A stretch of DNA of 64,000 bases from Candidatus Iainarchaeum sp. (GCA_016699555.1 CP064981.1:27456-91455); one strand, 5' to 3'; counted from the first letter of the stretch, positions 25,529 through 63,291 are shown. Notes: a model not told the origin generated them from the sequence alone. Made by a program: numbers and translations.

Positions 25529-25534
25529 AAATGG

Positions 25535-28700: not shown

Positions 28701-28871
28701 ATGAGTGGACGTAAACTTGTCATAACCTTGAATCCAAGCCTTAAACGTGGACTGGAGGAGGCATCAAAGCGCAGGAAATGCTCGCAAGCTGAAATTGTGC
28801 GTGGCCTCCTCTATCAAAATCTTGCCCCTTACTTGAAAGAGGTGGAAGCTGATGCCCAAACGCTTCTCTAA
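28701..28871 (+). CDS. Ribbon-helix-helix (CopG-like) DNA-binding protein
   Basis: MSGRKLVITLNPSLKRGLEEASKRRKCSQAEIVRGLLYQ is the classic RHH beta-strand plus two helices. Start chosen at ATG 28701, not the ORF-track start. Confidence 0.45.
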   Translation: MSGRKLVITLNPSLKRGLEEASKRRKCSQAEIVRGLLYQNLAPYLKEVEADAQTLL

Positions 28872-29484: not shown

Positions 29485-29813
29485 TGAAGTGTTTGCTGTG
29501 CATTGAAACTGAAGAAACAGTCCCACTTCGATTTGAAATGCACCACCTATCTGGTAGAAAATATTCTGACGAAACAGTTCCACTATGCCCAAACTGTCAC
29601 GCTAAAATAACAAAAATTCAAAACAAATTTCCTCCAAAGATACGTTCACAAAAGAATCGCAAAGACACATTAATTTTCAGTATTACAAGCACAACCGCGC
29701 TCATGAAAACGGGGGCTGAAAACGGCCTTCGTATGCTAAAAGAATTAACGGAGCTGATACAAAATGACTCAAAAAATAGCCGTGAGAATCTTGTCGAACA
29801 AGAAAAACAATGA
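29481..29813 (+). CDS. HNH endonuclease
   Basis: CLLC...HH...VPLCPNCH is the HNH zinc/ββα-Me motif. Confidence 0.7.
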   Translation: MMKCLLCIETEETVPLRFEMHHLSGRKYSDETVPLCPNCHAKITKIQNKFPPKIRSQKNRKDTLIFSITSTTALMKTGAENGLRMLKELTELIQNDSKNSRENLVEQEKQ

Positions 29814-32370: not shown

Positions 32371-33065
32371 TTTTCAATTTCCTTATCTATTATAGTTATT
32401 ATCTCGTCCAAGTAACGAATAAGCTGATTAAGTGATTCTTCAGTAGCATCGACACCTAACTTTTCTTTATTAGCAATTAATTCCAATTTATCTTTTGCAT
32501 TTTGAAATCTTATTTTTACGCCTAAGAAAATGTCTTTTGCTTCTTCATAGTCAACTTTTGTCGGATTATTGACAAGCAGTATCTTCTTCCCGCCAGTTAC
32601 AAAATCTTCTAAACCTTTCACAACTTCCTCTTGAATATCTAAACTCAATTGGAGATCCGTACGAAGTTGCTGATCATATGTGAGCACTTCTTTTGTTTTG
32701 CCTAAAAGCCACCGCATCTCTGATAATTCCGCCTTTGCTAAAGGAATAATTGCATCAGCTTCATCAAAATGGTTGAATTCTATGTAAGCAAAAATTACTC
32801 CAAGATAATATGCAAAAGAGGCGTGGCGTCTTTCATAATCAATACTAATTTCTTTTACTTTTTCTAATTCTATATTATAATTATTTATTCCTGCTTCTAA
32901 ATTTTGGATTTGCTCTTTTTGGGACTGTGTTTCAAAATAAAGATTTCCTGCAGCAATCAATAGAAATAATAGTATCACTCCGTATATCCCTTGAGTTGAG
33001 GGGTTTTGATGATTTTGCATAGTGCTTGATCTCGTATGGTTTTTTTCGTCCATTGTAACGTTCAC
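32367..33065 (-). CDS. Casposon membrane-anchored coiled-coil protein
   Basis: N-terminal TM helix (IYGVILLFLLIAAGNLYF) plus coiled coil. Confidence 0.4.
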   Translation of the reverse strand: MNVTMDEKNHTRSSTMQNHQNPSTQGIYGVILLFLLIAAGNLYFETQSQKEQIQNLEAGINNYNIELEKVKEISIDYERRHASFAYYLGVIFAYIEFNHFDEADAIIPLAKAELSEMRWLLGKTKEVLTYDQQLRTDLQLSLDIQEEVVKGLEDFVTGGKKILLVNNPTKVDYEEAKDIFLGVKIRFQNAKDKLELIANKEKLGVDATEESLNQLIRYLDEIITIIDKEIEN

Positions 33066-33135
33066 CCAGGCTCAAAACTACGTTCGTTACGTTGATGTTA
33101 CGCTACTACTTATTAAGGGGTTATGCACCCCTTAT

Positions 33136-33387
33136 ATGTACGAACTTCTGAGCTACATTCGAAGAAGCTCAATAAAACGCAAAATTCTACAAAATTTACA
33201 GGAAGCTAAAACTCCAACAGATTTGAAGAAGGCTCTAGGGGTTCATAGGGAAAGTATCTCAAGGGCACTATTAGAGTTGGAGGAAAGAGGACTAGTTGAA
33301 TGTCTGACCCCAGACCAACCAAATTATCGCTATTACAAAATTACAGAAAAAGGAGATAAACTGTGTAAGCAGCTGAAAAATTACTGA
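33136..33387 (+). CDS. Small winged-HTH transcriptional regulator (PadR/ArsR-like)
   Basis: MYELLSYIRRSSIKRKILQNL...RALLELEERGLVEC; start at the internal ATG 33136. Confidence 0.45.
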   Translation: MYELLSYIRRSSIKRKILQNLQEAKTPTDLKKALGVHRESISRALLELEERGLVECLTPDQPNYRYYKITEKGDKLCKQLKNY

Positions 33388-34508
33388 ATTAGAACATGAT
33401 CCTCATCTAGTGAAGAACTCCAAACTTCGCTTTTCCATTTTTTCTTCCTTTTTGTTGGCATGTAAAAATTGTGGCTATCTTCCTCGATTTGTTTTAGCAT
33501 TTTTCTAATATTCTTCTCAAGTTCTGTTTTTGGTTTATACTTATATATTTTGCCATAAGCATTTGGGATCTTTTTAGCAATTTTTTTAGCCCACTCCACT
33601 TTCGGAATTTCAATTTTGGGGTCATATACCTTGATTGTTGCTAAAATATCTTTTTTTGACTTATTAGTTCTCTTAATTTCCTTAATGCTAATTTCTTTAT
33701 TGATTAGTTCTGATAACAACGGAATTGAAAAATCAACTGGCACCGAATCTTCAAAATTTTTCTTCCAAATAATAACTCTTCGCTTATCAATTAAACCAGC
33801 AGACACTAAATCATTTACAAATGAAATTACAGATTTATCATAATCAAGAACTAAGTAGTATTGAATGCCAGGAATCCTATATCTTCCAAGCAGTTCTTTT
33901 ATGGCTTGCTTCTTTACAGCGTCCTTGCCTTGTAAATTGATAATCTCATGGTCTCGAAATAGATTGAATTGATTTTTGTTAAAAAGAATTTCAAATGCTT
34001 CTTTCTCCGACTCGCCTTCAACCAGAATATAAAATTTAGGCTTTAAATCTTTTTGAAGTTTACCTAAACTAACAGTAAACTTGCTTACACCTTGAAGTAA
34101 TAAACCACTCCAGACTAAATGATTTGTTAATTGCATACCCTCATGATAATGCATCCTATCGTCAGTAGTGTAGTTATCTACCCACCTTACAGAAGCCCAG
34201 TGTACTTCAATAAATGAAAGAGATAATTTTACCAGTATTTCAACGTAATACTGATTTTGCAAATCAAATAGATATTGCACTGAATCAATAAAATTGTTTA
34301 AAAGTGTTTTTAGTTTTGGACAACTATCCATTGTCCCCCTATGTCCAAATACACAACTTCTCCCTCTTTTTGGATAACATGCGGGAAGATGACCTCCCAG
34401 GTGGGTTTTTAGATCTTCTAAAGTGTTAACATTTCTGAAGTCTAACTCTTGATTCATTGCCATCCAAAAAATTTTCAGCGACTTCGCATTGACAGAAACA
34501 TCTTTCAT
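33381..34508 (-). CDS. Casposon cargo protein with a C-terminal Toprim-like domain (OLD/DUF4435-like)
   Basis: FYILVEGESEKEAF (Toprim Glu) followed about 55 aa later by YYLVLDYDKSV (DxD); N-terminal Cys/His-rich segment. Confidence 0.4.
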   Translation of the reverse strand: MKDVSVNAKSLKIFWMAMNQELDFRNVNTLEDLKTHLGGHLPACYPKRGRSCVFGHRGTMDSCPKLKTLLNNFIDSVQYLFDLQNQYYVEILVKLSLSFIEVHWASVRWVDNYTTDDRMHYHEGMQLTNHLVWSGLLLQGVSKFTVSLGKLQKDLKPKFYILVEGESEKEAFEILFNKNQFNLFRDHEIINLQGKDAVKKQAIKELLGRYRIPGIQYYLVLDYDKSVISFVNDLVSAGLIDKRRVIIWKKNFEDSVPVDFSIPLLSELINKEISIKEIKRTNKSKKDILATIKVYDPKIEIPKVEWAKKIAKKIPNAYGKIYKYKPKTELEKNIRKMLKQIEEDSHNFYMPTKRKKKWKSEVWSSSLDEDHVLIQ

Positions 34509-34594
34509 TTAACAAGCAACTGTTTTTCTAATTTAATCTTATATGGTATTGATGAGAAAAAAATAGCCCCACACCATTACCAAATTATGTTGTG

Positions 34595-34626
34595 AAAGTC
34601 TCAAACGCGGCAGCTGTATATATCCC
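34595..34626. repeat. Right terminal inverted repeat (32 bp), exact reverse complement of the left TIR
   Basis: aaagtctcaaacgcggcagctgtatatatccc. Confidence 0.85.
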
Positions 34627-47898: not shown

Positions 47899-48690
47899 TT
47901 ATTTGTGATGCGTAATCGCGCCACGCAAGCCCGGATGCTTCTTCTGTGCATATTCATGTCCGCGCACTAACTCGAAGCGGCGCATGTAGAGAATAGTCTT
48001 GAGTATCTCGATGACGGGGATGACCACGACGAACATCAAAATGATGGAAACGAATCTCCCCACGGGAACGACTTGGTCCACGAGGTATTCGATGAGCGGC
48101 AGCAAGGCCACCAACACGGTCGAAACCACTACGACCAAAATGAAGTCGATGGGATGGGAAAGGATCACATAGAGGTTGGTGCGAATGCTCTCGAAGATGG
48201 GCTTTTCATCGATCACGAGGGATTGGGGAACGAACACGAGCGCCAGCGATAGAATCAACAACACTAAATTCATCCACACCACGCTCAAACTCAGGGCTTG
48301 ACCTAGCAGCACCAACCCGACGAACACGACGCTGATCAAGACGAAGTAGACCGCCATCACGACAAAGAACTTCTGCACCATCTCACGCAAATAGAAGTGC
48401 ACCTTGATGTGAGAGAGGTCGTTGCGCACCGCTAGGATGAGCAGCGTCAACAAAATGGCATACATGGACAAGAACAACAACCCCGCCACGGCCTGTGCGA
48501 TCACGACCTCGGGAGCGAGTTGGGCAAAGGAGTAATCGAAAAACACGCTTCCCGAGAAAAGCGCCATATTCTGGAATTGCAAGAAGAAAAAAGCGAAGAT
48601 GAGCAGGATAGCGAACGAGATGCTCAGGAGAAAGTTATCCACATACTGCTTCCGGATCTGGCCCACGAGCGAAATTTCTTCTACAACCAT
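47899..48690 (-). CDS. Polytopic membrane protein
   Basis: About 7 hydrophobic helices; no domain. Confidence 0.45.
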   Translation of the reverse strand: MVVEEISLVGQIRKQYVDNFLLSISFAILLIFAFFFLQFQNMALFSGSVFFDYSFAQLAPEVVIAQAVAGLLFLSMYAILLTLLILAVRNDLSHIKVHFYLREMVQKFFVVMAVYFVLISVVFVGLVLLGQALSLSVVWMNLVLLILSLALVFVPQSLVIDEKPIFESIRTNLYVILSHPIDFILVVVVSTVLVALLPLIEYLVDQVVPVGRFVSIILMFVVVIPVIEILKTILYMRRFELVRGHEYAQKKHPGLRGAITHHK

Positions 48691-48785
48691 ATTCCACCAT
48701 CATGGTCGCGCAGGATTAAAAGCTTGAGGCCGGGCCATGTCAAGCGGCAAGCGATGAACCCGATCCAGAAATCAACATAATATCG

Positions 48786-49343
48786 TTATGCTGCGACATG
48801 CATGTGCTTTTCGCCCCAAAAGCGGCGGACGAGCAAATAGGAAACCCACCCCAAGAGGCCCGCCAGCACAAAAACGAAGAAAGGGGACTGGAGCAGCTGC
48901 GGGATGAATTGTTCCTGCACGAAAGCAAGCGTGGCCGCGAATGAAGCCGATGCGGCATTCTTGCCCCCGCGTGCGATCTCCACGAGATAGGCGTTGTTCC
49001 AATAGTACCCCAGCATGGCGACGAACCACACCGCATAGGCAGCCACCATATACAGCAACGCGAATGGCACATTGAGCACAAATTCATCCTTGAAGTGGTG
49101 CTCATACCACTCCAACCCCAACCACATCAACCAAAAGCCGATGAAGGGGATGAACAGGAACAGGGGATCGATGAAGGCATAGCCCGTAATGGGGTCCCCG
49201 CGCAAAAAACTATACCCGAAGATATCCCACTTCGGCAAGAATTCTTGGGTAGCGTACAAGAGATAGAGCACGACGTAGGAGATGACGAACAATACCAAGG
49301 CCTTCCAGGATTTGGTGTGCATAACCAACCCATATCCCATCAA
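48786..49343 (-). CDS. Polytopic membrane protein
   Basis: About 5 hydrophobic helices; no domain. Confidence 0.45.
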   Translation of the reverse strand: MMGYGLVMHTKSWKALVLFVISYVVLYLLYATQEFLPKWDIFGYSFLRGDPITGYAFIDPLFLFIPFIGFWLMWLGLEWYEHHFKDEFVLNVPFALLYMVAAYAVWFVAMLGYYWNNAYLVEIARGGKNAASASFAATLAFVQEQFIPQLLQSPFFVFVLAGLLGWVSYLLVRRFWGEKHMHVAA

Positions 49344-49372
49344 GGTTTAAGACTGCATGGGTCGGCAACCCA

Positions 49373-50977
49373 TCAGGGGTTCAATGTGAACGCACCCACG
49401 TGGGTGCCGATCTCCCCAAATATAGGAGACCCACCCCAGTGCCCGCGCAATATCGAGTTGGCTTGCGGGTAACTCGGCAGTGAGGGCACCCCGGGAGCCA
49501 GGCGGACCCCCACAAAGTAATTCTGAGGCGTATTGATTCCAGTCAGACTGGGCAATGCGAATGTCGCACCACAATTCGCCCCAATCGGAGCCCCGGAGGA
49601 ATCCGGGACCACATTTGCGCCGGGATTCGTTGAACCAGGAGACGCAGGAATCAGCGAGGCAGTAATCAATGTTACCGCGGGATCGCTACTCGCATTCGCT
49701 AGTTTGTCGCACCACGCGCTCGTGGGAGTAGTGGGGGCAATCCGATAGAAGCGCAGATTCGGAATAACCCCGCCCAAATAAGCCGTGCACACCGCATTGC
49801 ATGCGTTCTGGGCGGCCGCCAAATTGGGCTGCCCTTGCCAGCACGGCGAGGAAGGATTATCAAAATTAGAGAACTTCAAACTGATTTGAGGAGTAAAGCC
49901 AGCTACCAACCCCGATGAGGCGAGCGGAGAAACATCAATGTGTACGACTTCCCCTTGGTCATTGGCAAAATCAAATACGCGGTTGACAGGATTAGTGAAA
50001 TACGCCTGCGCCACTGCAGGAGAACCCAACGAAGAATCGTATCCGCAACCCGCAAAGCTGAAGGGAGTCCCCAACCCCAAATCGCACCAATAGAAATCAT
50101 GCGCCGTCCCAGGAGCGGTCGAATCCAAGTTCTGGCACACGCGGAAAGAACCGGTGTAATAGTTCCAGGAAGAATAATACCCAAGCGCGTTGGTGCGCTT
50201 AATGCCTGTGGTATTGGCCTTCAACTCATACGTTGTCGGGCCCCCGGGAATCGCAGGAGGAAGCGGCTTCGCCTGGGTCACGCGCAAAGAAATATGGCCG
50301 TTCTTGGAATTCCCCTTGCCATCAAGGTCCCCTGAAATGAGCAATCCCAACTCGCGGGATTCCCCGGACTTGAGGATGAAACCCGCACTCGGAGCGGGAG
50401 AAATCAAGCTGAGGTCGCTCACCGGATTGGTGCACGCCGCAGCCGGATTCGGATTGAAGCAGAAGGGAACACTCAACGTCTGCACACAACTTGCGGAAGT
50501 CACATTGGGATCGCACACGCCCGAACAATCCCACACCGGGGGAGTCGTACCCGGATTCGCACTCACATCCGTGCATGTCCCACTCTGCACCGGGAGCAAA
50601 AAACCTACTTGAAGGCTGTTATTGAAAAAATTATTCTGGAGCGTGCACGGGACGAACCCGGCAGGAGTATAACAATTGAGCTCGGTCCCAATCCCATCGA
50701 TGTAGAGATCGCGCCACGTCGTGTTGGTCAGGCGCACCCCGACAGGATCTGTTTGGACGCCCGCGCCCCAATCCAGTTGCAGGCTGCAGTCCGCCGTCTT
50801 ACCCGTGCACAAGTCGATCTCTTCGTATTCTTGGATATTCGCCCCCAGGAAGCTTTGCCCGAGGGGAGTCAACCCGATCACGCTGAGCAGGATGATGATG
50901 ACGATGATGACGCCTCCCGCCAAGAGAAAAAGATATTCCAGCGCCGACTGGCCACGCGGAACAGAAGAGGAGTGCAT
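49373..50977 (-). CDS. Large type IV pilin-like (class III signal peptide) secreted protein, possible adhesin
   Basis: Preferred start MHSSSVPRG|QSALEYLFLLAGGVIIVIII: basic residue-Gly, Gln at +1, Glu at +5, hydrophobic helix = EppA/PibD-type prepilin signal. Thr/Ser/Gly/Pro-rich body with many Cys. Confidence 0.55.
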   Translation of the reverse strand: MHSSSVPRGQSALEYLFLLAGGVIIVIIILLSVIGLTPLGQSFLGANIQEYEEIDLCTGKTADCSLQLDWGAGVQTDPVGVRLTNTTWRDLYIDGIGTELNCYTPAGFVPCTLQNNFFNNSLQVGFLLPVQSGTCTDVSANPGTTPPVWDCSGVCDPNVTSASCVQTLSVPFCFNPNPAAACTNPVSDLSLISPAPSAGFILKSGESRELGLLISGDLDGKGNSKNGHISLRVTQAKPLPPAIPGGPTTYELKANTTGIKRTNALGYYSSWNYYTGSFRVCQNLDSTAPGTAHDFYWCDLGLGTPFSFAGCGYDSSLGSPAVAQAYFTNPVNRVFDFANDQGEVVHIDVSPLASSGLVAGFTPQISLKFSNFDNPSSPCWQGQPNLAAAQNACNAVCTAYLGGVIPNLRFYRIAPTTPTSAWCDKLANASSDPAVTLITASLIPASPGSTNPGANVVPDSSGAPIGANCGATFALPSLTGINTPQNYFVGVRLAPGVPSLPSYPQANSILRGHWGGSPIFGEIGTHVGAFTLNP

Positions 50978-51100
50978 GCCTGAGGCAATGCGTGTGAGAA
51001 TAAAAAGCCGCTCTCGAAATACCGTTCTTTCCCCGCACACGATAAAATTTGAGGCAAAAAAAAGCACCCCCTAAAAAAGGATTGGCTATGCATTTCCTGC

Positions 51101-52242: not shown

Positions 52243-53028
52243 TTAAGTCAGGCGGTATTTTCCGAGCAAGGGTTTTTTGGAATTGACAACGACCCCTTTT
52301 TTGTCGACGATTTCAAGCTCTACCAGTTTTCGTTTAAAATTTTCCCCGCGCAATTTGAATATTTCCAGTCCTCTCCCCCGAGAACCATTTTCGTATAGGA
52401 CATTGTAGATGGCGATAATCCCATCCGACAAAAAACTAATCGCCGCCCCCTTCTCGTCCCCCTGATATCCTCCGATGTGGGTGGGGACCGGAGTCTCTCG
52501 AATGAGGAGGGAACTGATGTTGTGTTTCTCCAGGTAGCGGAACAATTGTTCCATGTAAATACGGAAACGATATTCTTCTCCACTGAAAGCCGAAGAAATA
52601 GAGGTAAGTGAATCCACCAAAATCAAGTCGGGCTTGAAATCTCCCGGAATCAAAACAGGCTGCACATCAATCAACAATTCCTTCTTCGCCTCACTCAACA
52701 ATGCCTCGACGCTTCGCGCAATATCCAACGCGTTAAACCGCTTGATACAGAGTAATCCTTTCTTCTCGTACTGAACGGGATCGAATCCAAAAGAACGCAT
52801 GTGCTCACGGAGACGCTCTTCCCTCTCCTCAAAACTCATGTACAAGACCTTATGACCCGCCCGGCACATATTTTGACCCACTTGCAGACAAAAGAGGGTT
52901 TTACCCGAGCCCGGTCCGCCCTCTATCAGGATAGCAGAACCGGATGGAATCCCATTGTTAAGGAGATCATCCACGCCCTCAATTCCAGTCTTGTAAAATT
53001 CATTATTCATCAACGGTCGAGAAGGCAT
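52243..53028 (-). CDS. KaiC/RadA-like RecA-superfamily ATPase (single domain)
   Basis: GIPSGSAILIEGGPGSGKTLFCLQ Walker A in a KaiC-like context; 261 aa. Confidence 0.65.
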   Translation of the reverse strand: MPSRPLMNNEFYKTGIEGVDDLLNNGIPSGSAILIEGGPGSGKTLFCLQVGQNMCRAGHKVLYMSFEEREERLREHMRSFGFDPVQYEKKGLLCIKRFNALDIARSVEALLSEAKKELLIDVQPVLIPGDFKPDLILVDSLTSISSAFSGEEYRFRIYMEQLFRYLEKHNISSLLIRETPVPTHIGGYQGDEKGAAISFLSDGIIAIYNVLYENGSRGRGLEIFKLRGENFKRKLVELEIVDKKGVVVNSKKPLLGKYRLT

Positions 53029-53055: not shown

Positions 53056-54054
53056 TTATACCTTGCCTTCTCCCATGTTTGAGAGTGATCGCGGGTCCGG
53101 CGATTTTTTTTTAAAAAAACCTTTGAACTCTGATTTCTGCAGAGCCTCGGTGGATACTGCAATTTTTCGAGTGATGTCACGAACCATGGCATTGTAGACT
53201 TTGATTCGAATCTTGTAAATGGAATCCGGAATCGATCCCTTAACAAAAAATTCATCCTGTGCGCGACGAATTTCGTCCCGCAAGGTATTGCGTTCGAGTT
53301 CAAGTGCATTGATACGAGAGATAGCCATGTAGCGTTTCAGCCTGTTTTTGAAAATAAGGAAAAAAACCAACAACACGCCCCCTGCTCCAAGGATGGTAAA
53401 CTTGTTCGTGTCCAAAAATGAAAAAACATTCGCGGTTGCCGCCTCTGCGGCGGCTTTGGCTTTAGTATCCAGGGATTGGAGCTCGACAATCTTATCCTCC
53501 CCCGCATTGGCGGATTCCTTGGCCGTTTCGAAACGCTCGGCATTGAGTTCCCGCTTCGCTGAAGCCAACAACGCCTCCACGGGAGCAGGATCGATGGAAT
53601 CCTTCGCCTCCCCCAAATGTTTTTCGAGGGCGACAATTTCATCTTTGGCTTCATAAGCGAGAGAAATGATCCTATCTAATTCTGAGATCTTTTTGTAGAC
53701 ATCCGTGAAATTTTCCTTTTTACCGGATTGGACGAGGGGATACTCGATTTCATAGTAGGAGTGCGCTGCAATTAATCCGTCCGAAACACGAACCGTTTTG
53801 AGGCCCGCCGCACCCATCTTGCCAATGGTATCCTGCATATTCTCTAACTCCTGCAGGACGGCCTTGTCCTTCGCCAAGAAAATAGCATTGGCATCCGAAA
53901 GGGGGGAGGGAGTCTCTAACCCTTGAAGGGACAGGATTCCTGGACCGGTTTCGCTCGCCAACCCCGTTGTCAATGGAGGGAGGGCGGAGAGAACCACCAA
54001 GAAGAGCACGAGGGAAAGGGGATTCATTTCAACACCTTGTAATAGATTTGCCAC
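53056..54054 (-). CDS. Surface protein with signal peptide, C-terminal TM anchor and basic cytoplasmic tail; partner of the giant protein
   Basis: N-terminal MNPLSLVLFLVVLSAL signal; C-terminal ILGAGGVLLVFFLIF TM then coiled-coil tail; overlaps the giant gene stop by 31 bp. Confidence 0.5.
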   Translation of the reverse strand: MANLLQGVEMNPLSLVLFLVVLSALPPLTTGLASETGPGILSLQGLETPSPLSDANAIFLAKDKAVLQELENMQDTIGKMGAAGLKTVRVSDGLIAAHSYYEIEYPLVQSGKKENFTDVYKKISELDRIISLAYEAKDEIVALEKHLGEAKDSIDPAPVEALLASAKRELNAERFETAKESANAGEDKIVELQSLDTKAKAAAEAATANVFSFLDTNKFTILGAGGVLLVFFLIFKNRLKRYMAISRINALELERNTLRDEIRRAQDEFFVKGSIPDSIYKIRIKVYNAMVRDITRKIAVSTEALQKSEFKGFFKKKSPDPRSLSNMGEGKV

Positions 54055-57000
54055 AACCCGCGCAAGAGACCATTCGTCGTGCGCAAGACCCTCTTTGCTT
54101 CCGAAACCATGATGTCCTTTTCAATCTGACTAAAACGACTGTTGAGGCTCTTCATTTTCGTATCATAGATCCGGGTCTCCGTATCCCCTTTATTGAAGTA
54201 AGATTCCTGCGTCCCCTTAATCTCTTCAATAATACGCTCGCGCTCATCTCGAAGTTTGGCGGATCGCGTCTTAAATTTGAGAAGGTTGTTCCGCTGGTTC
54301 TCCAACTGAATGCCCTTTTCCACGACACGCGAAAGCCTCCCCTCAAAATGGGACGCGGTCTCATGATAATCATTGATGGAGAGTTTTCCCAAGACAAAAC
54401 AATCGTTTTGAGCATTCTTGATGAGGGAAAGCAGGAGATCCTGTTCCGATTTAAGGGCCTTAATTCGACGACCCAGGAGGGCGTGGCGAAGGTATAAGGA
54501 GCCCAGGAACATGACCACAATAATCACGAACCCCGTAGCCGTGAGGGGCTTGGCATTCTTGATGACGAATGCCGTGATGTTGATCGCCCCCTTCGTCTCC
54601 AATAGGAATACGTTCTCCGCATCTGCAATGCGCTGGGCCGCTTGATCGAACTCCCCGCGATTGAATGATTGTTCAGTCAACGTGATGAGGCGCAGGGTCT
54701 TAGGGACTTCCAGGCCATCCTCTTTCGCCTGATCAATTCCCTTCTGCAAGGCGGCAAGCTTTTCGCTCACGGACTGGGCAAACTGGTACTGGGACTTGAT
54801 CTTTTCCGTGAGAACGGCCATATCCTCGTACGCTTTTTCGTCAAAAAGGATCTGGGCCTGCTTCTGAAGTTTAACCAGGGGAGAAATTTCCCACCCACGA
54901 GCATTCATGTCTGCCAAGATGGTTTTGGTTTCCGCCAACAAATTAACCGCCATCCCCTTGGTGACTTCACGAATTTGAAGAATGATCACTCGCTCCTCCT
55001 GGAAAGCCTTGGGCCTGAGCCATTTCTTCCCAACCAATACCCCGTCAATGGTAAACGTCAATTCATGTCGACCGCTCGTAAAGTAGGAAGGAGAAGAAAT
55101 CTCCACGCGCAATTTCTTTTCTTCGGATGGAGCAAAGTCTCCCAAGTATCTGGGGGTCACGCTCAAGTATTTGGACAAGAGCCCCTCCACCGTCACATTG
55201 ATGTTTTGGAGCGACTTATCCTCGAACGGATTTGTGATAATCACTTCAAACACCGAATTCTGTCCACGGAGGAGCTCGAACTCTTCCTGAGAGCTCTTGA
55301 AAAAATTACTCGCATCTTCGGAATTGGAAAATATTCCGCCGCCTCCCAAAGAACTGCTGCTACCGCTGCCGCCTCCGCCACCCCCACCGCCTCCGCCACC
55401 GCCGCTCGCAGTAGTAGTAGTGCTACTCGAACTCCCCGAAGAACCCCCACCGGCTTCCACCACTTCGATGGAAATGGAAGTGGAGCGCGTCTTATTGTCA
55501 TCCCCGCAACACGTGCCCGTGGCAATCACCGACTGATCGCCCGCCGTGGCGTCATCCGCAATTGAAACGGTGATGGAATTGGTGAGGATACTGTTAACCC
55601 CCAGAATCGCAGTGGAGACGGATTGAGTTCCCGAAATAATGCTCCACCCAGAGGGAAGAGTCCAGGTTAATTCCACGTTGTTTCCATCTGAATTTCCTTG
55701 ATTCGTGATTTTAGCGATAAATTGTTTGTTGTCGTCTCCCTGCGTCACAAATAGGGGATACGTGGGAATGGTGACGTTGAGAAATGGCCCCCCAGCCAAA
55801 CTAATAATAGTACCCGAACTCGTCGCACTCGATGGGGAGGCCTGCGCTTCCGAAGGGTCGGCCGTGATGGTGAGGCCATCGCTCCGCTCCACGGATTTGG
55901 TATTGACGAGGGTGTACAACAACCCATTGGAATCGGGATTCACGACTATCGAATACCCGTCCCCTTGGGGGGTGTTATTGTAGAAAATCTTGGAGGTGGG
56001 GTCCCAATTCGAAGTCACGGAGAAGGTAAGGGCCAAGTCACCCGTATTTACGATGTTAATATCCCCCACGACGACGTTAGTATCGAGACTCCCGCTCAAC
56101 GAACCAAAAGAAGAAGGGGAAAAGGACCACGAATAATCCGTGTACGCGAAAAAGGTCGCAGAGGAAGAATTAGAATCATTCCCCTGCGTGTCAAGGGCGT
56201 AAATTCGGTACTCGAATATCTTGTTCAGGTCGCTCGGAATAAAATAATTGTAGTCATATTCGTAATTGTAATCCGTGGGCTGCGAGACCAGGGACATGGA
56301 AATCGAATTCCAATCACTCCAAGAAGAATTCTCGTCATAGAACCAGCGCACCTGCAGATCGACTTGAGAAAGACCCGTGTATTCGGTAACGTTCACATCA
56401 AAATCGACCCACTTGCCGGGATCAATTCCCGCATTGGTGTCCGGACTAATGGACACCCCCCACGCGTCGGGGGGAGTGACATCTCCCACTGAAAACTGGA
56501 AAGAAGTAAACGCATCATTGGATGCAATATCAAACACGTGCACGTTCACATCTACCGTCCCCGCATTCATCGCATTGGCATCCACCACGTAATTTGGGGT
56601 CGCGTTCGTATCGGAAAACGATTGACGGACCTGGACATTGAGATCTGGTCCCAGGATGTTAATATCCACGTAATTCAGTTGAAGATTATCCCCGACGACC
56701 GCCCACACGTTCACGTCAAGATCGTCATTCACATCCGATGGAGTGCGACCGGAGCTGAGGATCACCGGCGAAATCGCATCGTTGGCCGAGGTGCTGCTCA
56801 CAGAAAAGGATCCAGGATTCTTGAGGCTGAAAAAAATCATGTTCAAGTCACTGGCGCCAGACCACGCGTTGAAGGGAGCGCGTGCGACGCGTGAATTGAA
56901 TTGATCTTCATTCGAGACGGAACCGGAATAAAGCTGGCGCGTCCAATACTCATAATCGGACTGATCATAAAAATTAGACGCGATCACCGGAGATGGATTG

Positions 57001-60000
57001 TCCGACCGATTGATGAAAACGGTTCCGACCCCATCCCCATTCGCAGGGGAATAAACGCCCCAATAATTAATGTCGCCCATCGACGAGACTCCGGAACCTG
57101 CACCGTCCGTCACTGAACTGGGAGTAAAAACATTGTTTTTGAAGTATCCAAAATTCGTAAAATTCCCATCGGCGAGGGCAACGTAATCATCATAGAGGTA
57201 TGACCACGATTGCGACTGCGTAGGCGAGACATTCGTGTCGATCAGGAAGAACGGCTGTTTAGCGTAAAAATAGTAAGTGAGATTGTAATCCAAACTACCG
57301 GAAGTCCCTCCCACAGAAAACTTGGAAAAAAGGCCTCCATTAACATCCAGCGAGAACGAGGGACCGGTGACCCCGTACGAAGAATAGGTAAAAATCCCCG
57401 ATTTTGACTCTGGGGAAAGCTGTAACGGGTTATTGCCCCCCACATTGGTATTGGTCCCTAACCTGTTCCAGAGTCGAGAAACCATCCCACCATAATTGAT
57501 ATCCAGTTCACTCGATAGAAGAGAGTTTTGGAACGTATATTTGTACCCGGACACTCCCAAATTGAGATCAGGAGAATATTGAGCATTCACATCATTCGGA
57601 GAATAATTCACATAGAATGTGCGCCCCTCCCCCTTATCCGAAGACACGAGAAAAACGCCCCGCCCGCTAACAAGATTGCCGTTCACGAGGTTCGTATCAT
57701 ACAATTGGGAGGGAATCTCCAAGTAATTGGTCCCATTGAAATCAAGGACGCGCACCGACGACGAAGAAGCTTGAAAATTGAAATCAAATGCCACATCCGC
57801 CGGCCAAAACCAACGGGGCAAGACATTCGGTTCCTGTACAGTCACACTAAAACGAAAAGGATAAACCTCGCCGTCCGCATCCGTGTACCCGTCCCGCCAA
57901 ACCGGAGAACGATAAAACACATTATAGTGCCATTTATTGGAAACTTGAATCGAATACCATCCAATGGAACCATTCACGGAGTACGTATATTGATGGCGGT
58001 TCACATCAGAAGTGCTCACATCCGTCATCGTAGCTAAATTGACCAAAACATTCCCATCCGAATCCACAATCGTGAGATGGGGCGCCACGACATTCCCATC
58101 AATGACAATATTGACATCCTCCCCGCTCCCAAAAAAACTACGAGGAGAACTATTCGAATACGTTTTAACCCAGACGCGAGGGGAAGACAACAAGAAGAAA
58201 TTCGCATCCGAAGCGTCAGTCTCCCCGCCGTTGGAATCCAATCCCCTCAATAGAATGAAATAATTCCCATCCACCACGTCAGAGGCGTCCCAGGGATACG
58301 AACAAGAATACACGGGTCCCCCCGCACACGTGGCACTGCTCAAAAGACCACTCAGGATGGGAGTCCCCCCTCCTAGGGAGGAAGAATAATTGATGTCCAC
58401 ATTCAAATCACTCAATGAACCATACCCCGACTCAAAATTGAAATCAACCGAAGTCACTCCTCCGACAGTTTCCCCGCCATTCGGAAAGACCACCACCACG
58501 TACGGGGCATTCTGGTCGTAGTGAAAACCCATGTCGATGAGGCCCGAATCGAGTTGGTTGGAGAGACGAGTGGTCTTGGATTGGTAAAAAGAATTAACAT
58601 CCACTCCCCCCGCCCCCACTAGCAACTGTCCGCCATTCGCATCGGTATTTAGTAAAAAATTACGATCCGAATTATCTCCGATAAAAGGATTATTGACGAA
58701 GCCCGTCTCAACATTTTGATCCCCCTCGTGTTGAGCGGACGTCCCCCCAATAGTAGTAATCCCCTGGAACGCATTATTTGAAATCGACCCCGTAAATGTC
58801 CCGCTGAGGGCAGTTCTCCCGGTTTGAAAAATATTACGCTGGACATTACCCGAAAAAGTACCAGAGTTCAGAATGGCGATGGACGTGGAACGGTTGAAGT
58901 CCGTAAATGTATTATTGTACACCGATCCGGAAAACGTCCCGGAGGCATTTTGGATGAAATTAGTATTCGTGTAATTGGTGGAAAACAAGTTGTTGTACAC
59001 GGCCCCCGAAAACGTCCCGGTGGAATTCGTGTAATACAAGGAGGTCATCGTCCCAATGTTGGAAAAACGATTATTGTAGAAATCACCCGATGAGAGGCCC
59101 GCCATGTAGATTACTTGACTTGCGGAATAGGAATTGAGATCGTCCATCACGTTATCATGGAATGATCCCGTGAAAGAACCGCTCGTGCTCTGAAAAAATG
59201 CACGATTGTTTATGTTGCGCGAAAAATTATTGTCATAAATGTTTCCGGTAAAGGAAGCATTGTTGTAGATTGCGGCGTAGTTAACAGTGGTATTGAAATC
59301 AGTAAAGTTGTTTCGATAGATATCGCCAGAAAAGATTCCACTGGCCACCGAAAATCCATACGCCAGGCCCGTCATCCTGGAGAAATTGTTATCGTGGACG
59401 GATCCCGAATACGTCCCCGTGATGGTGTACATCAAATAGGATGCAGCGGTGCTATTCACATCGGAAATAGAGTTGTTGTAAAAGTCCCCCGAAAAAGTGG
59501 AACTGTTGTAAAGGAAATAACTCGCAATAGATCGATTAAAACCCGAGAGATTATTGTCGTGAATGGTCCCTGAAAAAGTCCCCGCGTTAAAAATGATGTA
59601 ATTAGCTGCCGTGTAATTAATGTCCGACCACGTATTGCCACAAATTTGACCCGAAAAAGTACCTGCCGTGATATTGACGAAACGCATGTTCCAAGCATCG
59701 TGCATGGTGTTGTTGCAAATGCTCCCGGTGAATTCACTCCCGGTAAGTTGGAGATTAAACGCATAGGAAGCCGTGAGAGTCGTGAAGGAAGTGAAATCAT
59801 TCCCATTAATATCCCCGGAAAAAACAGTGGCGGGGGCATGGTAAATGGCATATGCACGATCCAATGTAAAATTGTTGTCCGTCACGCTACCGGAAAAAGT
59901 TCCCGCCAGGTTGAATATGCCATACCCGGTTTGCTTGAGCAAAATGTTATTGTCATGCACCCCGCCGGAATAATTCCCCGTCAGATATAGAAAGGCATAG

Positions 60001-61214
60001 TTGGAGCTCCCCGAATTGATGTCGGCTCGATTCCCATACACGTCACCCGAAAACTCGCTGGAGGTATTGGAAAAAATACCATGCGCTCGGTCAAGGGTCA
60101 GATCATTATTGTACACGTCCCCCGTATACACTCCGCTCTGGAATCGCAGCCATTGGGCAGCAAGAGTAAGGACGGCGTTGTTATCGTACACGTCCCCCGA
60201 ATAGTCTGCATTCATGCGAATTCCAAAATACGTGGAGGCTGTTCCATTGGCATTTACATCGAAATAGTTATTGTAAAAGTCCCCAGTCGACGCCACACTT
60301 GTGGCGGAAAAAACCCCGCTCGCGAGGAAGGCAGTGACGTTATTGTCATAGTAGTCCCCATTGAAGGCCGCAGAGGTATTGAGGTACAGTCCGTATGCGC
60401 CGCGCTGTGGAGTGAAATTGTTATCGTGAATGGCGCCCGTAAACGTGCCGTCGATACGGACCCCATAATACCCACCCGCGGTCGCGTTGGCATTGACATC
60501 AAAAAGGTTGTGGTAAATGTCAGCGGAAGTATCCGCACTCAATTGAAGCGCGGCGGCGGTGGCGGTCCTCCGCCCAAAATAACTAAAATTCGAATCGTGA
60601 ACGCTTCCCACGTTCAAATCCAACTGCACCCCGATGGTGGCGTATAACACTTTCAAATGAGAAAAAGAATCGGTGCTGCCGTTTCCTGCGCTTGATGTGA
60701 GGTAAAACGCGACATTATAATCCTGATTACCCGCTGTGCCGGAACAACCCGAGACTGTGCTCGTGTCCACTCCATACGTTTGATCCCGACATGAAGTGAA
60801 AATAATTTTATTAGAAGCGGTACCATTCGCCGAAAGAACGGCTCCGCTCGTGACATGAATTCCGGAAGAGGTTGAGTTCGTGTACTTGACCACGGTACCG
60901 GGAGCAATGTTCAAATCCACGTCCATGCCGGAAAAAATCACCGCGCCGGAAATAACATAGGTATTGGCATCGATGAAATTGGCATCCGACGAAATGGTTC
61001 CCGAGACCACACACACATTGTTGGTATCCCCACACGCAATAGCAGCAAAAACGGGCGAGGAAAGCAGAAAAAGGGAGAATATAGCCCCAAATAGGAAAAA
61101 ATATCGCCCACTACTAAGGGGTATTCGCGACGAGGCTTGGGCAAGGGCAATTATCGAAAACATGATCGGACAAAACCAAAAAAGCTTTTGACAGTGGGGA
61201 CCCATTTGAAGCAT
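54024..61214 (-). CDS. Giant (2396 aa) cell-surface protein dominated by parallel beta-helix-like repeats, with Gly-rich linker, C-terminal TM anchor and cytoplasmic coiled-coil tail
   Basis: Signal peptide; dozens of degenerate about 22-aa units (F[ST]GxxxDNNF / YYGxRxD / GDxYNN); poly-Gly GGGGGGGGGGGGSGSSSS; TM VIIVVMFLGSLYL near the C-terminus. Confidence 0.7.
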   Translation of the reverse strand: MLQMGPHCQKLFWFCPIMFSIIALAQASSRIPLSSGRYFFLFGAIFSLFLLSSPVFAAIACGDTNNVCVVSGTISSDANFIDANTYVISGAVIFSGMDVDLNIAPGTVVKYTNSTSSGIHVTSGAVLSANGTASNKIIFTSCRDQTYGVDTSTVSGCSGTAGNQDYNVAFYLTSSAGNGSTDSFSHLKVLYATIGVQLDLNVGSVHDSNFSYFGRRTATAAALQLSADTSADIYHNLFDVNANATAGGYYGVRIDGTFTGAIHDNNFTPQRGAYGLYLNTSAAFNGDYYDNNVTAFLASGVFSATSVASTGDFYNNYFDVNANGTASTYFGIRMNADYSGDVYDNNAVLTLAAQWLRFQSGVYTGDVYNNDLTLDRAHGIFSNTSSEFSGDVYGNRADINSGSSNYAFLYLTGNYSGGVHDNNILLKQTGYGIFNLAGTFSGSVTDNNFTLDRAYAIYHAPATVFSGDINGNDFTSFTTLTASYAFNLQLTGSEFTGSICNNTMHDAWNMRFVNITAGTFSGQICGNTWSDINYTAANYIIFNAGTFSGTIHDNNLSGFNRSIASYFLYNSSTFSGDFYNNSISDVNSTAASYLMYTITGTYSGSVHDNNFSRMTGLAYGFSVASGIFSGDIYRNNFTDFNTTVNYAAIYNNASFTGNIYDNNFSRNINNRAFFQSTSGSFTGSFHDNVMDDLNSYSASQVIYMAGLSSGDFYNNRFSNIGTMTSLYYTNSTGTFSGAVYNNLFSTNYTNTNFIQNASGTFSGSVYNNTFTDFNRSTSIAILNSGTFSGNVQRNIFQTGRTALSGTFTGSISNNAFQGITTIGGTSAQHEGDQNVETGFVNNPFIGDNSDRNFLLNTDANGGQLLVGAGGVDVNSFYQSKTTRLSNQLDSGLIDMGFHYDQNAPYVVVVFPNGGETVGGVTSVDFNFESGYGSLSDLNVDINYSSSLGGGTPILSGLLSSATCAGGPVYSCSYPWDASDVVDGNYFILLRGLDSNGGETDASDANFFLLSSPRVWVKTYSNSSPRSFFGSGEDVNIVIDGNVVAPHLTIVDSDGNVLVNLATMTDVSTSDVNRHQYTYSVNGSIGWYSIQVSNKWHYNVFYRSPVWRDGYTDADGEVYPFRFSVTVQEPNVLPRWFWPADVAFDFNFQASSSSVRVLDFNGTNYLEIPSQLYDTNLVNGNLVSGRGVFLVSSDKGEGRTFYVNYSPNDVNAQYSPDLNLGVSGYKYTFQNSLLSSELDINYGGMVSRLWNRLGTNTNVGGNNPLQLSPESKSGIFTYSSYGVTGPSFSLDVNGGLFSKFSVGGTSGSLDYNLTYYFYAKQPFFLIDTNVSPTQSQSWSYLYDDYVALADGNFTNFGYFKNNVFTPSSVTDGAGSGVSSMGDINYWGVYSPANGDGVGTVFINRSDNPSPVIASNFYDQSDYEYWTRQLYSGSVSNEDQFNSRVARAPFNAWSGASDLNMIFFSLKNPGSFSVSSTSANDAISPVILSSGRTPSDVNDDLDVNVWAVVGDNLQLNYVDINILGPDLNVQVRQSFSDTNATPNYVVDANAMNAGTVDVNVHVFDIASNDAFTSFQFSVGDVTPPDAWGVSISPDTNAGIDPGKWVDFDVNVTEYTGLSQVDLQVRWFYDENSSWSDWNSISMSLVSQPTDYNYEYDYNYFIPSDLNKIFEYRIYALDTQGNDSNSSSATFFAYTDYSWSFSPSSFGSLSGSLDTNVVVGDINIVNTGDLALTFSVTSNWDPTSKIFYNNTPQGDGYSIVVNPDSNGLLYTLVNTKSVERSDGLTITADPSEAQASPSSATSSGTIISLAGGPFLNVTIPTYPLFVTQGDDNKQFIAKITNQGNSDGNNVELTWTLPSGWSIISGTQSVSTAILGVNSILTNSITVSIADDATAGDQSVIATGTCCGDDNKTRSTSISIEVVEAGGGSSGSSSSTTTTASGGGGGGGGGGGGSGSSSSLGGGGIFSNSEDASNFFKSSQEEFELLRGQNSVFEVIITNPFEDKSLQNINVTVEGLLSKYLSVTPRYLGDFAPSEEKKLRVEISSPSYFTSGRHELTFTIDGVLVGKKWLRPKAFQEERVIILQIREVTKGMAVNLLAETKTILADMNARGWEISPLVKLQKQAQILFDEKAYEDMAVLTEKIKSQYQFAQSVSEKLAALQKGIDQAKEDGLEVPKTLRLITLTEQSFNRGEFDQAAQRIADAENVFLLETKGAINITAFVIKNAKPLTATGFVIIVVMFLGSLYLRHALLGRRIKALKSEQDLLLSLIKNAQNDCFVLGKLSINDYHETASHFEGRLSRVVEKGIQLENQRNNLLKFKTRSAKLRDERERIIEEIKGTQESYFNKGDTETRIYDTKMKSLNSRFSQIEKDIMVSEAKRVLRTTNGLLRGLWQIYYKVLK

Positions 61215-61323: not shown

Positions 61324-62610
61324 TCACTTGAAGAAATCCAATATGCGCTTCTGGTGCTGCACGCGATCCAAGAGCTTGGAGTTCTTCTTCCATACATCGA
61401 TGGGAATGGATAGTTTCGTCGCGAGATGCGCCAACGCCGCGTCCAACGAATCGAATTCTTTTTTCTCGGATTGCATGGCATTCCGCACGTTTTGGCGGCA
61501 TTGCCAGACGCCCATGGGTTGCTGATAGCCGGGACCGATTTCCCTGAATATGACGCACGCCGCCTGCTTGCGCTGCGCGTGGAGGTATTCCACTACCGCC
61601 AGGCGCGTGGCATAATATCCTCCCGCGACGTTCTCGGCATAATTCTTTCTTCCTTCGTAGAATTCATGATCGCAACTCATGTGCACACCTTTCATCTCTT
61701 TCGACCAAAAACCTCCGGGGCGATAGGCTTCCATGATATCGAAGCTCCACTCGCGCGGCAGCAAGAGGACGAAAAAGTGATTATCGAGATAATGCGATTC
61801 GAACACGTGGAATTGATCGATGCTCGGGAAGTCTTTGAGCGCTTCGATCTCCTGCTTGCCGATCGTATCGTCCACTGCCGTAATGGCCCAGCGCGTCGGC
61901 ACGAGTTTGCGATTATCTTTTTCTCCCAGCGTTCCGACGGATAAGAGCTTGTACAGATGATGCACCGGAATCTCGTCCGCGTACAACTCATTCATCGCCG
62001 TGGCCGCTTTCGCGTGGGTGTCGCTCACGAGGTAATCCACTTTCTGCGGAATCTTAGGATTCTCCTGCAACGCCAATGATTTCAGCGGCGCCTGCGGACC
62101 CATGGGAGGAGCGGCATCCGTGAAATGCAATTCCGCTTGGGGTTTTTTTGTTAATTCTATTGCGACATCCAACTTTTTCACGGACATCGCGATCTCTTGC
62201 ACTTGCTGCAATTCCTTTCCGGGATCCTTTGCGGCATGGATAGAAACGGGAATGTTGCTCCGCACGAGTTGGGTGCGATACCCCACGAGCGTCTCAAGAG
62301 GAGTACCGAACCAGCGCTCGGGATTATCCAAAAGGTCGGCGTCTTCCGAAAAATACGTGGGAGCCATCGGGGCCATCTTGACTTTGGGATACCCATAATG
62401 CGAAACGAAAACGGAAGGAGGAGAACTCCCAGCGAACGATTTTTCATTGATCTGTTGGAGGGACTGCTGCTTGGTCTGGTGCTTCTCGAGGATCCAGCAA
62501 ATGGGACCGCACCATAAACGACCACGACACTTCACACAGGTCTCGGGAGAAGGTTTGACATCGCTACTGGGCGCGCTCGTGGGAAGGGGATGCATAGCAT
62601 ATACCGCCAA
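61324..62610 (-). CDS. nreA: NreA-like archaeal DNA-repair protein with C-terminal PCNA-interacting (PIP) box
   Basis: N-terminal CxxC...C zinc-like cluster (CVKCRGRLWCGPIC); extreme C-terminus QKRILDFFK fits the Qxx[ILM]xx[FY][FY] PIP consensus; about 430 aa. Confidence 0.5.
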   Translation of the reverse strand: MAVYAMHPLPTSAPSSDVKPSPETCVKCRGRLWCGPICWILEKHQTKQQSLQQINEKSFAGSSPPSVFVSHYGYPKVKMAPMAPTYFSEDADLLDNPERWFGTPLETLVGYRTQLVRSNIPVSIHAAKDPGKELQQVQEIAMSVKKLDVAIELTKKPQAELHFTDAAPPMGPQAPLKSLALQENPKIPQKVDYLVSDTHAKAATAMNELYADEIPVHHLYKLLSVGTLGEKDNRKLVPTRWAITAVDDTIGKQEIEALKDFPSIDQFHVFESHYLDNHFFVLLLPREWSFDIMEAYRPGGFWSKEMKGVHMSCDHEFYEGRKNYAENVAGGYYATRLAVVEYLHAQRKQAACVIFREIGPGYQQPMGVWQCRQNVRNAMQSEKKEFDSLDAALAHLATKLSIPIDVWKKNSKLLDRVQHQKRILDFFK

Positions 62611-63291
62611 AAGCGTTATTTAATAGGAAATGCAACTAAGGGTGTGGAACCAAAAAAGAAACCAATCGGGATCGGCGCACTCTATCGCACAGCACTGCGC
62701 GAACTCCCGTCATATCGAGAGCGCAATGCACGCGTCATCCAAGCACTCGCTAATCCCACGCAAGCGACATCGCGCGCATTATGGAATAACTATGCCATCG
62801 TCACTTCTTACCGCGCCGCACGGAGATTCGTGCAACGCTACGAGATCCACCGCCAAAACTTCAAAGATCTATTCAGCGCGACGCTGGCGCGATCTATCGA
62901 ACTATTTCCTGTACTCGCACGACGCCATGCACGCGAACCGATTCAGCACGTATCAGGAGCGTATTTCCCTTATGTCGTGAATGCCCTAAAAGTGGAGGCA
63001 CGTAAATTGAAACCATATCGCCAGATGAAGGAGCGCGCCCCAAAGAAAGTAGGCGTGATTGAAGATCACGTGCACGGCGTCTTGGAAGAGATTCCATTAC
63101 GGAAGCGCCTGATGGTCGAAGCCTATTACCTACACGGGCTCAATACCACTGAAATCGGACGCCTGATGGACATGACGCCCGGCAGCGTACACACTACCCT
63201 CTGGAGGATTCGTAAAGAACTGCGCAAAAAAATGCGCGTCATTGAACCGCGTAAAACCCTCCGAAGGACCATCCGCGGAAGGCGCCGATAG
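62590..63291 (+). CDS. Second protein with sigma-70 region-4-like C-terminal HTH (ECF-like)
   Basis: LRKRLMVEAYYLHGLNTTEIGRLMDMTPGSVHTTLWRIRKELRKKM resembles sigma-70 region 4.2. Confidence 0.45.
   Translation: MHSIYRQKRYLIGNATKGVEPKKKPIGIGALYRTALRELPSYRERNARVIQALANPTQATSRALWNNYAIVTSYRAARRFVQRYEIHRQNFKDLFSATLARSIELFPVLARRHAREPIQHVSGAYFPYVVNALKVEARKLKPYRQMKERAPKKVGVIEDHVHGVLEEIPLRKRLMVEAYYLHGLNTTEIGRLMDMTPGSVHTTLWRIRKELRKKMRVIEPRKTLRRTIRGRRR

Follow-up and report, generated by a model that had tools for sequence, protein, structure and literature searches.

Two kinds of archaeal protein akin to those of the locus described here are already known, namely DPANN surface proteins that combine a beta-helix with immunoglobulin (Ig)-like domains, and KaiC-like ATPases that have been proposed as signalling hubs. 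In Nanobdella, a cultivated DPANN archaeon, sequon-rich surface proteins with a pectin-lyase fold and Ig-like domains are proposed to be host-interaction factors (10.1101/2023.10.27.564410). Stand-alone archaeal KaiC-like ATPases have been proposed to be 'signal transduction hubs' that act with varied input and output proteins encoded nearby (Makarova et al. 2017, cited in PMC5847659), and KaiC-like ArlH is bound by ArlX, a protein with a single transmembrane (TM) segment that forms a cytosolic ring (PMC8978795). Little is known of the means by which DPANN archaea attach to other cells and exchange signals with them, and the majority of their surface proteins lack annotation. We analyzed 64,000 nucleotides (nt) of Candidatus Iainarchaeum sp. 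(GCA_016699555.1 CP064981.1:27456-91455; hereafter the window), in which a three-gene cassette on the minus strand encodes a giant protein of 2396 amino acids (aa), a smaller membrane-bound partner and a KaiC-like ATPase. In this locus, an unnamed, conserved family of single-pass anchors would link a giant surface protein that has a beta-helix with an ATPase of the cytoplasm. Ca. Iainarchaeum is a small-genome DPANN archaeon (Diapherotrites/Iainarchaeia), and archaeal genes surround the cassette (upstream Nre, then the small subunit of RFC and a Pelota/eRF1-like protein).

By description, the giant resembles Nanobdella aerobiophila MJ1_0451, MJ1_0701 and MJ1_0776, which are likewise secreted and sequon-rich, consist of a parallel beta-helix and Ig-like beta-sandwiches, can be recognised mainly by predicting their structure and have a proposed role in cell-cell interaction. 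However, those proteins have only 908-1320 aa, and the preprint mentions neither an anchor module at the C-terminus nor a paralogous partner nor a link to a KaiC-like ATPase. The ArlX-ArlH pair of the crenarchaeal archaellum motor offers an analogy for the cytoplasmic side of the cassette, a single-pass protein that has a helical cytoplasmic domain serving there as the membrane scaffold of a single-domain KaiC-like ATPase; ArlX differs in lacking a large ectodomain and in working with ArlI, ArlJ and archaellins. The cassette has no arl genes beside it (its neighbours are RFC, Nre and similar genes), and its ATPase is not ArlH (NF052589, 43 bits vs. a cut-off of 215). Like the window ATPase, PH0284, PH0186 and SSO2452 consist of one RecA-like KaiC domain in which the Walker motifs are intact, but the window ATPase has a specific neighbour, the unnamed single-pass membrane family.

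We document the anatomy of the giant, its paralogy with the partner, the three-gene cassette and the wide conservation of the anchor-ATPase pair. The reading that we favour, with some hesitation, is that of an adhesin at the cell surface, grafted onto a coupling unit of anchor and ATPase that is itself conserved. A preliminary description of the same stretch had reported the giant and a 332-aa partner as a pair; the two open reading frames (ORFs), their sizes and their overlap stand, but the unit ends in a third gene, the ATPase, which had been overlooked. The features of the cassette are as follows (AlphaFold2 confidence is given as the predicted local distance difference test, pLDDT).

54024..61214, minus strand: giant ORF, 2396 aa, ATG start (called ORF; collinear orthologues)
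61041..61214, minus strand: N-terminal signal-peptide region, aa 1-58 (hydropathy and aligned orthologue N-termini)
58719..61040, minus strand: predicted right-handed parallel beta-helix head, aa 59-832, ~30 coils of 25-28 residues (repeat register, AlphaFold2, Foldseek)
56415..58718, minus strand: central region, aa 833-1600, beta-rich, packed with D-x-N, fold mostly unresolved (AlphaFold2, orthologue identity)
55515..56414, minus strand: probable tandem Ig/MG-like beta-sandwich stalk, aa 1601-1900 (Pfam PF10633, Foldseek)
55335..55457, minus strand: Gly/Ser low-complexity linker, aa ~1920-1960 (composition)
54960..55319, minus strand: membrane-proximal beta-sandwich, aa 1966-2085 (AlphaFold2 strands aa ~1978-2082, pLDDT 60-81)
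54540..54959, minus strand: extracellular helical hairpin bundle, aa 2086-2225 (AlphaFold2, pLDDT ~68-85; BLASTP to partner)
54480..54539, minus strand: single TM helix, aa 2226-2245 (hydropathy 2.2; unbroken AlphaFold2 helix 2226-2274)
54027..54479, minus strand: cytoplasmic basic helical tail, aa 2246-2396 (pI 9.8; AlphaFold2; orthologue alignment)
53056..54054, minus strand: partner, 332 aa, GTG start (stand-alone member of the anchor family)
52243..53028, minus strand: single-domain KaiC-like ATPase, 261 aa, third cassette gene (PF06745)

The giant is a Sec-exported, C-terminally anchored (type I), glycoprotein-like surface protein. Its N-terminal hydrophobic region ends at SSPVFA/AIACGD by hydropathy (slashes mark the cleavage position), and the N-termini of orthologues align there with AxA-type sites (AWA/AI, VSA/AI, AFS/AI), in agreement with the signal peptide recorded in the preliminary description. 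The real start may be Met18 at 61163, which would give 2379 aa, because a TATA-like box (TTTAAAT) overlaps the first ATG. A lipobox reading of AIAC/GD was rejected: the same CGDTNxxC motif is internal (~residue 1010) in P0004, and the AxA-type cleavage sites of the orthologues directly precede this position. The ectodomain has an isoelectric point (pI) of 4.3 and 49 N-x-S/T sequons, vs. a pI of 9.8 and no sequons in the tail.

With its internal repeats and homopolymeric Gly tract, and coming from a metagenome-assembled genome (MAG), so long an ORF might be a collapsed or chimeric repeat assembly, or non-coding altogether. The alignment of orthologues refutes this explanation, which we regard as having a negligible chance of being correct. 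Six giant orthologues from independent samples (P0001-P0003, plus those of L004, L005 and L006; 2329-2523 aa) align end to end with the window protein, collinear over ~2,400 aa at 40-70% identity, and the length comparison called for earlier finds differences only in ~six extra coils in P0001 and in the length of a variable linker. A giant of equal size and in the same context also occurs in L008 (Ca. Iainarchaeum AR10) and in L010 (a Micrarchaeota MAG). At the DNA level the repeat copies within the giant are just 60-80% identical over 20-40 nt, the sole tandem repeat in the coding part being a 35-nt CCGCCA tract that encodes poly-Gly. Assembly collapse, which had been named as an outcome that would overturn the preliminary description, is excluded because the DNA copies have diverged and seven orthologues (2329-2527 aa) at 40-70% identity are collinear; in addition, domains of the protein are recognised by both Pfam and AlphaFold2.

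The anchor module common to giant and partner begins at the helical hairpin bundle of the giant (AlphaFold2 helices 2086-2105, 2111-2125, 2129-2165, 2171-2185 and 2189-2219). It continues through the TM helix, which has positive residues on its C-terminal side, into a tail that is 75-76% identical to those of the closest orthologues and is predicted as four or five helices of ~30 residues. One TM helix and a helical cytoplasmic tail had been correctly anticipated; the tail, however, has ~150 rather than 200 aa, and the prediction is of several helices rather than one long coiled coil. It bears two copies of the motif Q..[FY]F..G.....Y, AQNDCFVLGKLSINDY and TQESYFNKGDTETRIY.

The partner has a signal peptide, a ~180-aa helical ectodomain, a TM helix at aa 218-237 (nt 53344-53403) and a ~95-aa basic tail with one copy of the motif, confirming the topology given for it in the preliminary description. 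It overlaps the giant by 31 nt and is 100% identical to GenBank IPJ89_00485 (Ca. Iainarchaeum archaeon), annotated at 301 aa. Translation probably starts at Met10, giving 323 aa, and the GenBank start is probably mis-annotated and too short, because it removes a signal segment whose hydrophobic character is kept at the N-terminus of all partner orthologues. Beyond this similarity in layout, partner and giant are related in sequence. In BLASTP, aa 106-280 of the partner line up with aa 2112-2283 of the giant (E 3e-7), and the partner tail aligns again with giant aa 2308-2371 (E 2e-5), which is why we count two tail-motif copies in the giant vs. one in the partner. A profile of eleven partner orthologues, which scores the partner itself at E 7e-143, matches the C-terminus of all ten giants (E 6e-14 to 3e-4), the window giant at 6e-14. 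On these alignments, the partner is a paralogue of the C-terminal module of the giant. A search of the PDB with the partner and family profiles returned only TolC coiled-coil noise (E 0.007).

Directly downstream of the partner, on the same strand and after a 27-nt gap, lies the ATPase gene. Its product matches PF06745 with 145.6 bits (E 2e-42) over profile positions 2-229 of 231, and its best relatives in the PDB are KaiC (5e-38) and PH0284 (5e-22), together with PH0186 and SSO2452. Walker A (GGPGSGKT), the catalytic Glu pair (FEE) and Walker B (LILVDS) are conserved in 5 orthologues. Circadian KaiC has two tandem KaiC domains (~500 aa) and the partners kaiA/kaiB. The window ATPase is not a circadian KaiC, having one domain in 261 aa and reaching 101.6 bits vs. 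a cut-off of 408 with NF006799; no kaiB-like gene was found among its neighbours in the window, and all NCBIfam KaiC subfamily models score it far below their cut-offs.

The order giant, partner, ATPase recurs in the window, L001, L002, L004, L006, L008 and L010, while the flanking genes differ from locus to locus around the conserved cassette. The contig of L005 ends inside the downstream ORF and that of L003 just after the giant, so that the order is only partly visible there. Further downstream in the window, beyond a convergent RFC gene, three consecutive minus-strand ORFs of 564, 185 and 263 aa (47899-51067) have no match in Pfam or NCBIfam; they were rejected as members of the cassette because they show no synteny in other loci.

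The anchor module extends far beyond these giants. An exhaustive HMMER search with the partner profile recovered 891 cluster representatives at E<=1e-3, 214 of them at E<=1e-30, and named members fall in five DPANN lineages (Aenigmarchaeota, Woesearchaeota, 'Nanohaloarchaeota', Micrarchaeota and Diapherotrites). Among the top 149 matches listed besides P0014, 129 are stand-alone proteins (<=450 aa, typically ~290 aa), 15 have long cytoplasmic extensions and 5 modules sit at the C-terminus of giants; large members elsewhere carry other heads, either Laminin_G_3 or NosD plus Big_13. The family is recognised by a signal peptide, a ~180-aa helical ectodomain with conserved R..D, DEL and ER motifs, a single TM helix and a tail of basic character, in which the Q..[FY]F..G.....Y motif is nearly invariant family-wide (top positions include Q266, Y269/F270, E277 and R292). 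By profile match, the window partner and the C-terminus of the giant both belong to it. No Pfam family, NCBIfam model or solved structure matches the anchor family, and a Pfam scan of 43 members gave scattered noise only.

In many relatives of this archaeon, the anchor gene keeps company with the ATPase. It adjoins an ATPase orthologue in the window and also in every other fully assembled locus that was inspected, eleven in number. Five diverse loci illustrate the range of module genes found beside a KaiC-like ATPase, the module being carried by giants of LamG type, by unannotated ones or by a stand-alone protein.

L007: LamG giant beside KaiC-like ATPase
L011: 3518-aa LamG giant beside KaiC-like ATPase
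L012: 2061-aa giant beside KaiC-like ATPase
L013 (Aenigmatarchaeota): 289-aa stand-alone anchor beside ATPase, within a ribosomal-protein cluster
L014: 788-aa module protein beside KaiC-like ATPase

In these five, the ATPases are 64-67% identical to that of the window over their full length, vs. only 30-36% for the anchors, and across lineages the corresponding ranges are 64-87% and 30-45%. Judged by these identities, the ATPase is a distinct, tightly conserved orthologous group in DPANN lineages. The reciprocal test started from 80 metagenome loci with the ATPase (63-75% identity), 31 of which extend at least 1.2 kb to each side. An anchor neighbour was found in 27 of the 31, in 25 cases as an ORF within 900 nt and in 2 as a module in a ~1,130-aa protein immediately downstream. 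For two single-copy genes in a genome of ~1,000 genes, we estimate the probability of chance adjacency at well under 1%. Gene neighbourhoods in both directions thus document a wide conservation of the anchor-ATPase pair in DPANN.

A third conserved small gene accompanies the pair in some loci. It matches one profile in 25 of the 80 metagenome loci and lies between anchor and ATPase in 16 loci (L019, L025, L031, L035, L039, L042, L043, L045, L061, L068-L070, L073, L076, L086 and L087). The product has 128-175 aa, with an N-terminal helical part ('FLSMDLxERMIRxEQ') and two TM segments. The gene is absent from the window and from L001-L010, including all Iainarchaeia and Micrarchaeota cassettes.

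The main rival explanation is an S-layer-like structural pair. In SlaA/SlaB of the Sulfolobales and in tetrabrachion, neighbouring genes encode a large outer protein rich in beta-structure and a small, helical one that is anchored by a TM segment, both strongly glycosylated. The giant could likewise be a structural cell-envelope protein (S-layer or canopy) with the partner as its membrane stalk, the ATPase being merely regulatory or co-expressed; we consider this unlikely, but it accounts for several observations. The cassette does encode a large and a small secreted protein in adjacent genes, the small one with a helical ectodomain and a TM anchor; the ectodomain of the giant is acidic and rich in sequons; its orthologues keep strict collinearity, with hardly any indels and with many residues invariant; and several genomes hold one syntenic copy of the locus. 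Nor would dissimilarity in sequence speak against it, archaeal S-layer proteins being often mutually dissimilar (10.1101/2023.10.27.564410). The cassette differs from SlaA/SlaB in that each protein possesses a TM helix and a conserved cytoplasmic tail of its own, the anchors are paralogous and an ATPase gene follows them. Most lineages, moreover, have the anchor-ATPase pair without any giant, and the heads fused to the anchor differ by lineage (beta-helix, LamG, NosD/Big). We know of no SlaB-like S-layer anchor with a conserved cytoplasmic tail or a dedicated ATPase. The S-layer explanation falls short because it leaves the conserved cytoplasmic motif and the link to the ATPase in giant-less lineages without a cause.

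The adhesin reading looks to the outer end of the giant. The motif F[ST]GxIxxNxF marks ~24 repeats of 25-28 aa between aa ~200 and 830, and an invariant Asn stands at the 'DNNF / NN' position of successive coils in the orthologue alignment, at the level of sequence. Some 26 residues per coil and a recurring Asn are what is expected of right-handed helices. The AlphaFold2 model of aa 58-832, built from a six-sequence alignment, has a pLDDT of mostly 80-95 and three short strands per coil throughout. It superposes on solved beta-helix proteins in Foldseek searches of the PDB, where the long top matches are all right-handed parallel beta-helix proteins: PL6 alginate lyase (the best), EtpA, the HK620 and Dettilon tailspikes and inulin fructotransferase, then Fap2, Ag43, AlgE4 epimerase and chondroitinase B. 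In the viral BFVD library, the top matches are pectate-lyase-superfamily and tailspike models. A leucine-rich-repeat (LRR) solenoid was rejected for the head, AlphaFold2 and Foldseek giving beta-helices and no LRRs; a PDB sequence search with the giant profile A2 returned nothing significant, with LRR noise only at E 0.77.

The models support a parallel beta-helix for the head at the level of fold, covering ~32% of the giant. The beta-helix of the preliminary description is borne out to this extent, whereas its statement that the protein is largely made of such repeats is not, since the helix spans only aa ~59-832. At ~4.8 A per coil, ~775 residues in ~30 coils would form a rod ~14 nm long. 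Distant relatives P0006, P0020 and P0021 carry Beta_helix/NosD domains and align with the giant mostly over the N-terminal ~140 aa. As an extended rod for binding or depolymerising at the surface, the head resembles the long right-handed beta-helices of EtpA, FHA-type two-partner-secretion exoproteins, Fap2, Ag43 and phage tailspikes. These bacterial adhesins and tailspikes need outer-membrane beta-barrel transporters or attachment to a virion; the giant instead has its beta-helix at the N-terminus, is Sec-exported and is held in an archaeal membrane by a C-terminal TM anchor, and sequence homology to them is undetectable. A Pfam scan of the giant found no autotransporter or two-partner-secretion domains, its C-terminus being a helical anchor with one TM segment.

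Several of these structural matches are enzymes, and the head might itself be one, a membrane-tethered polysaccharide lyase or depolymerase acting on host or environmental glycans, with adhesion secondary. The best PDB match is an alginate lyase, tailspike depolymerases, inulin fructotransferases, chondroitinase B and AlgE4 follow, the viral pectate-lyase-superfamily models agree, and pectin-lyase-like surface proteins of DPANN have been proposed to degrade host walls (10.1101/2023.10.27.564410). The giant, however, matches no polysaccharide lyase, glycoside hydrolase or other enzyme family of Pfam or NCBIfam at E<=1, no catalytic residues were identified, and the structural E-values are all weak. 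With ~30 coils, the head is also long for a beta-helix enzyme and closer in coil number to EtpA, Fap2 and Ag43. We hold a primarily enzymatic head to be improbable.

Between head and linker, the giant has a conserved stalk of in all ~1,100 residues, rich in beta-structure and including Ig-like beta-sandwiches. Its first part, the central region (aa 833-1600), is 45-70% identical to orthologues; here pLDDT is mostly <50, with beta-sandwich-like parts at 60-80 and aa 1197-1600 at 20-40. The following part contains an NPCBM_assoc domain (CARDB-like, PF10633) at aa 1828-1898 (E 4.3e-10; 40.1 bits vs. a cut-off of 24.4), which is the sole match in Pfam and NCBIfam scans of giant and partner and is also recorded in orthologues P0001-P0003. 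The model of aa 1601-1900 is all-beta, and its Foldseek matches are domain arrays of alpha-2-macroglobulin, of C3 and of integrin legs (E 1e-9 to 1e-5); it probably consists of tandem Ig/MG-like beta-sandwiches, at a model confidence that is only moderate.

The Gly/Ser linker includes a run of 12 Gly encoded at 55368-55403. Among orthologues this tract is poly-G, is Q/E-rich or carries a Cys-rich insert, and we read it as a flexible linker because its length and composition vary. The hinge of the preliminary description is present as a variable low-complexity tract, but the TM helix said to follow it lies ~265 extracellular residues away. In the giants of L001 and L006 (P0002), the insert is CSDGIQN.GETGIDCGGPC.PC, at a place where the window protein has plain poly-Gly.

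The ectodomain is also marked by an excess of D-x-N (73 observed vs. ~14 expected) and of D[VLIF]N (33 vs. 3.5), seen in no other ORF of the window. Over aa 833-1965 (55320-58718), 27 of 47 D-x-N sites are invariant across seven orthologues at 40-70% identity; by residue, invariance in this range is 55% for Asp and 45% for Asn, vs. 7% for Ser and Val. D or E stands at position -2 in 21 of the 49 N-x-S/T sequons. Possible roles for the D-x-N sites are metal binding, modification or a structural turn.

If the adhesin reading is correct, giant and partner would associate in the membrane via their homologous helical ectodomains, TM helices and tails. By analogy with ArlX-ArlH, the conserved tail motifs could recruit the KaiC-like ATPase to the membrane, probably as a hexamer, and its nucleotide or phosphorylation state would become coupled to the state of the surface protein. 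Two alternatives are conceivable, in which either binding is reported inwards or the assembly or activity of the adhesin is controlled from inside. The head would most likely bind glycans or protein on another cell or a substrate, and might cleave glycans too. The anchor-ATPase pair would be the ancient conserved core of the system, with giant heads (beta-helix here, LamG elsewhere) as lineage-specific additions.

Several observations weigh against a surface adhesin on such a coupling unit. Adjacency of genes could reflect co-regulation without contact between their products, 4 of the 31 ATPase orthologues have no detectable anchor neighbour, and no fusions of anchor and ATPase turned up when they were looked for. 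An ectodomain so strictly collinear and so strongly conserved suits a structural protein of the envelope no less well than an adhesin that evolves fast to recognise its host. On the side of the head, the structural matches are weak (best E 2e-4, low TM-scores), and neither Beta_helix (PF13229) nor NosD (PF05048) of Pfam matches the giant at E<=1. The comparison proposed in the preliminary description thus succeeds with beta-helix structures and fails with these Pfam models. Finally, ~770 residues (aa 833-1600) are without a reliable fold.

A wider proposition, which we put forward as a speculative one, is that anchor family and dedicated ATPase together make up a device for transmembrane coupling, hitherto undescribed and present across DPANN lineages, in which the tail motif docks an ATPase ring and different heads (beta-helix, LamG, NosD/Big) are grafted on outside. 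We did not find the anchor family, its pairing with the ATPase or the grafting of giant heads in the searchable literature, the 2017 survey of KaiC hubs lying outside that search. If the proposition is true, the device would be an archaeal counterpart of integrin-like outside-in/inside-out signalling or an ATP-controlled attachment apparatus, it might govern cell-cell contact in small-genome archaea, and a specific partner would be assigned to one subfamily of archaeal KaiC-like ATPases, proteins that are abundant but obscure in function. The two-gene core of anchor and ATPase, with a defined tail motif and interchangeable heads, offers a handle for testing it. A host-attached life need not be part of this picture: paired giant surface proteins had been called characteristic of episymbionts, which may not apply to this lineage; a review notes that Ca. 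Iainarchaeum andersonii may live independently (PMC6349945).

Two further features lie elsewhere in the window. Directly 3' of tRNA-Arg(TCG) (24168-24243) is a 10.4-kb island of low GC content (24253-34626; 0.33-0.38 vs. ~0.52 around it), which has at its ends a pair of 44-nt terminal inverted repeats with 98% complementarity (24253-24296 and 34583-34626). The island encodes Cas1 on the minus strand (26579-27763; PF01867, E 4e-63), with no CRISPR array seen, and the other island ORFs sampled, including one of 868 aa on the plus strand (29764-32370), have no Pfam match; the island looks like a casposon-type element. On the plus strand at 62590-63291, a 233-aa ORF has a C-terminal domain of the sigma-70 region 4/ECF-sigma-like type (PF08281, 6e-7; TIGR02937, 6e-11, just under the cut-off), which is unusual for an archaeal genome.

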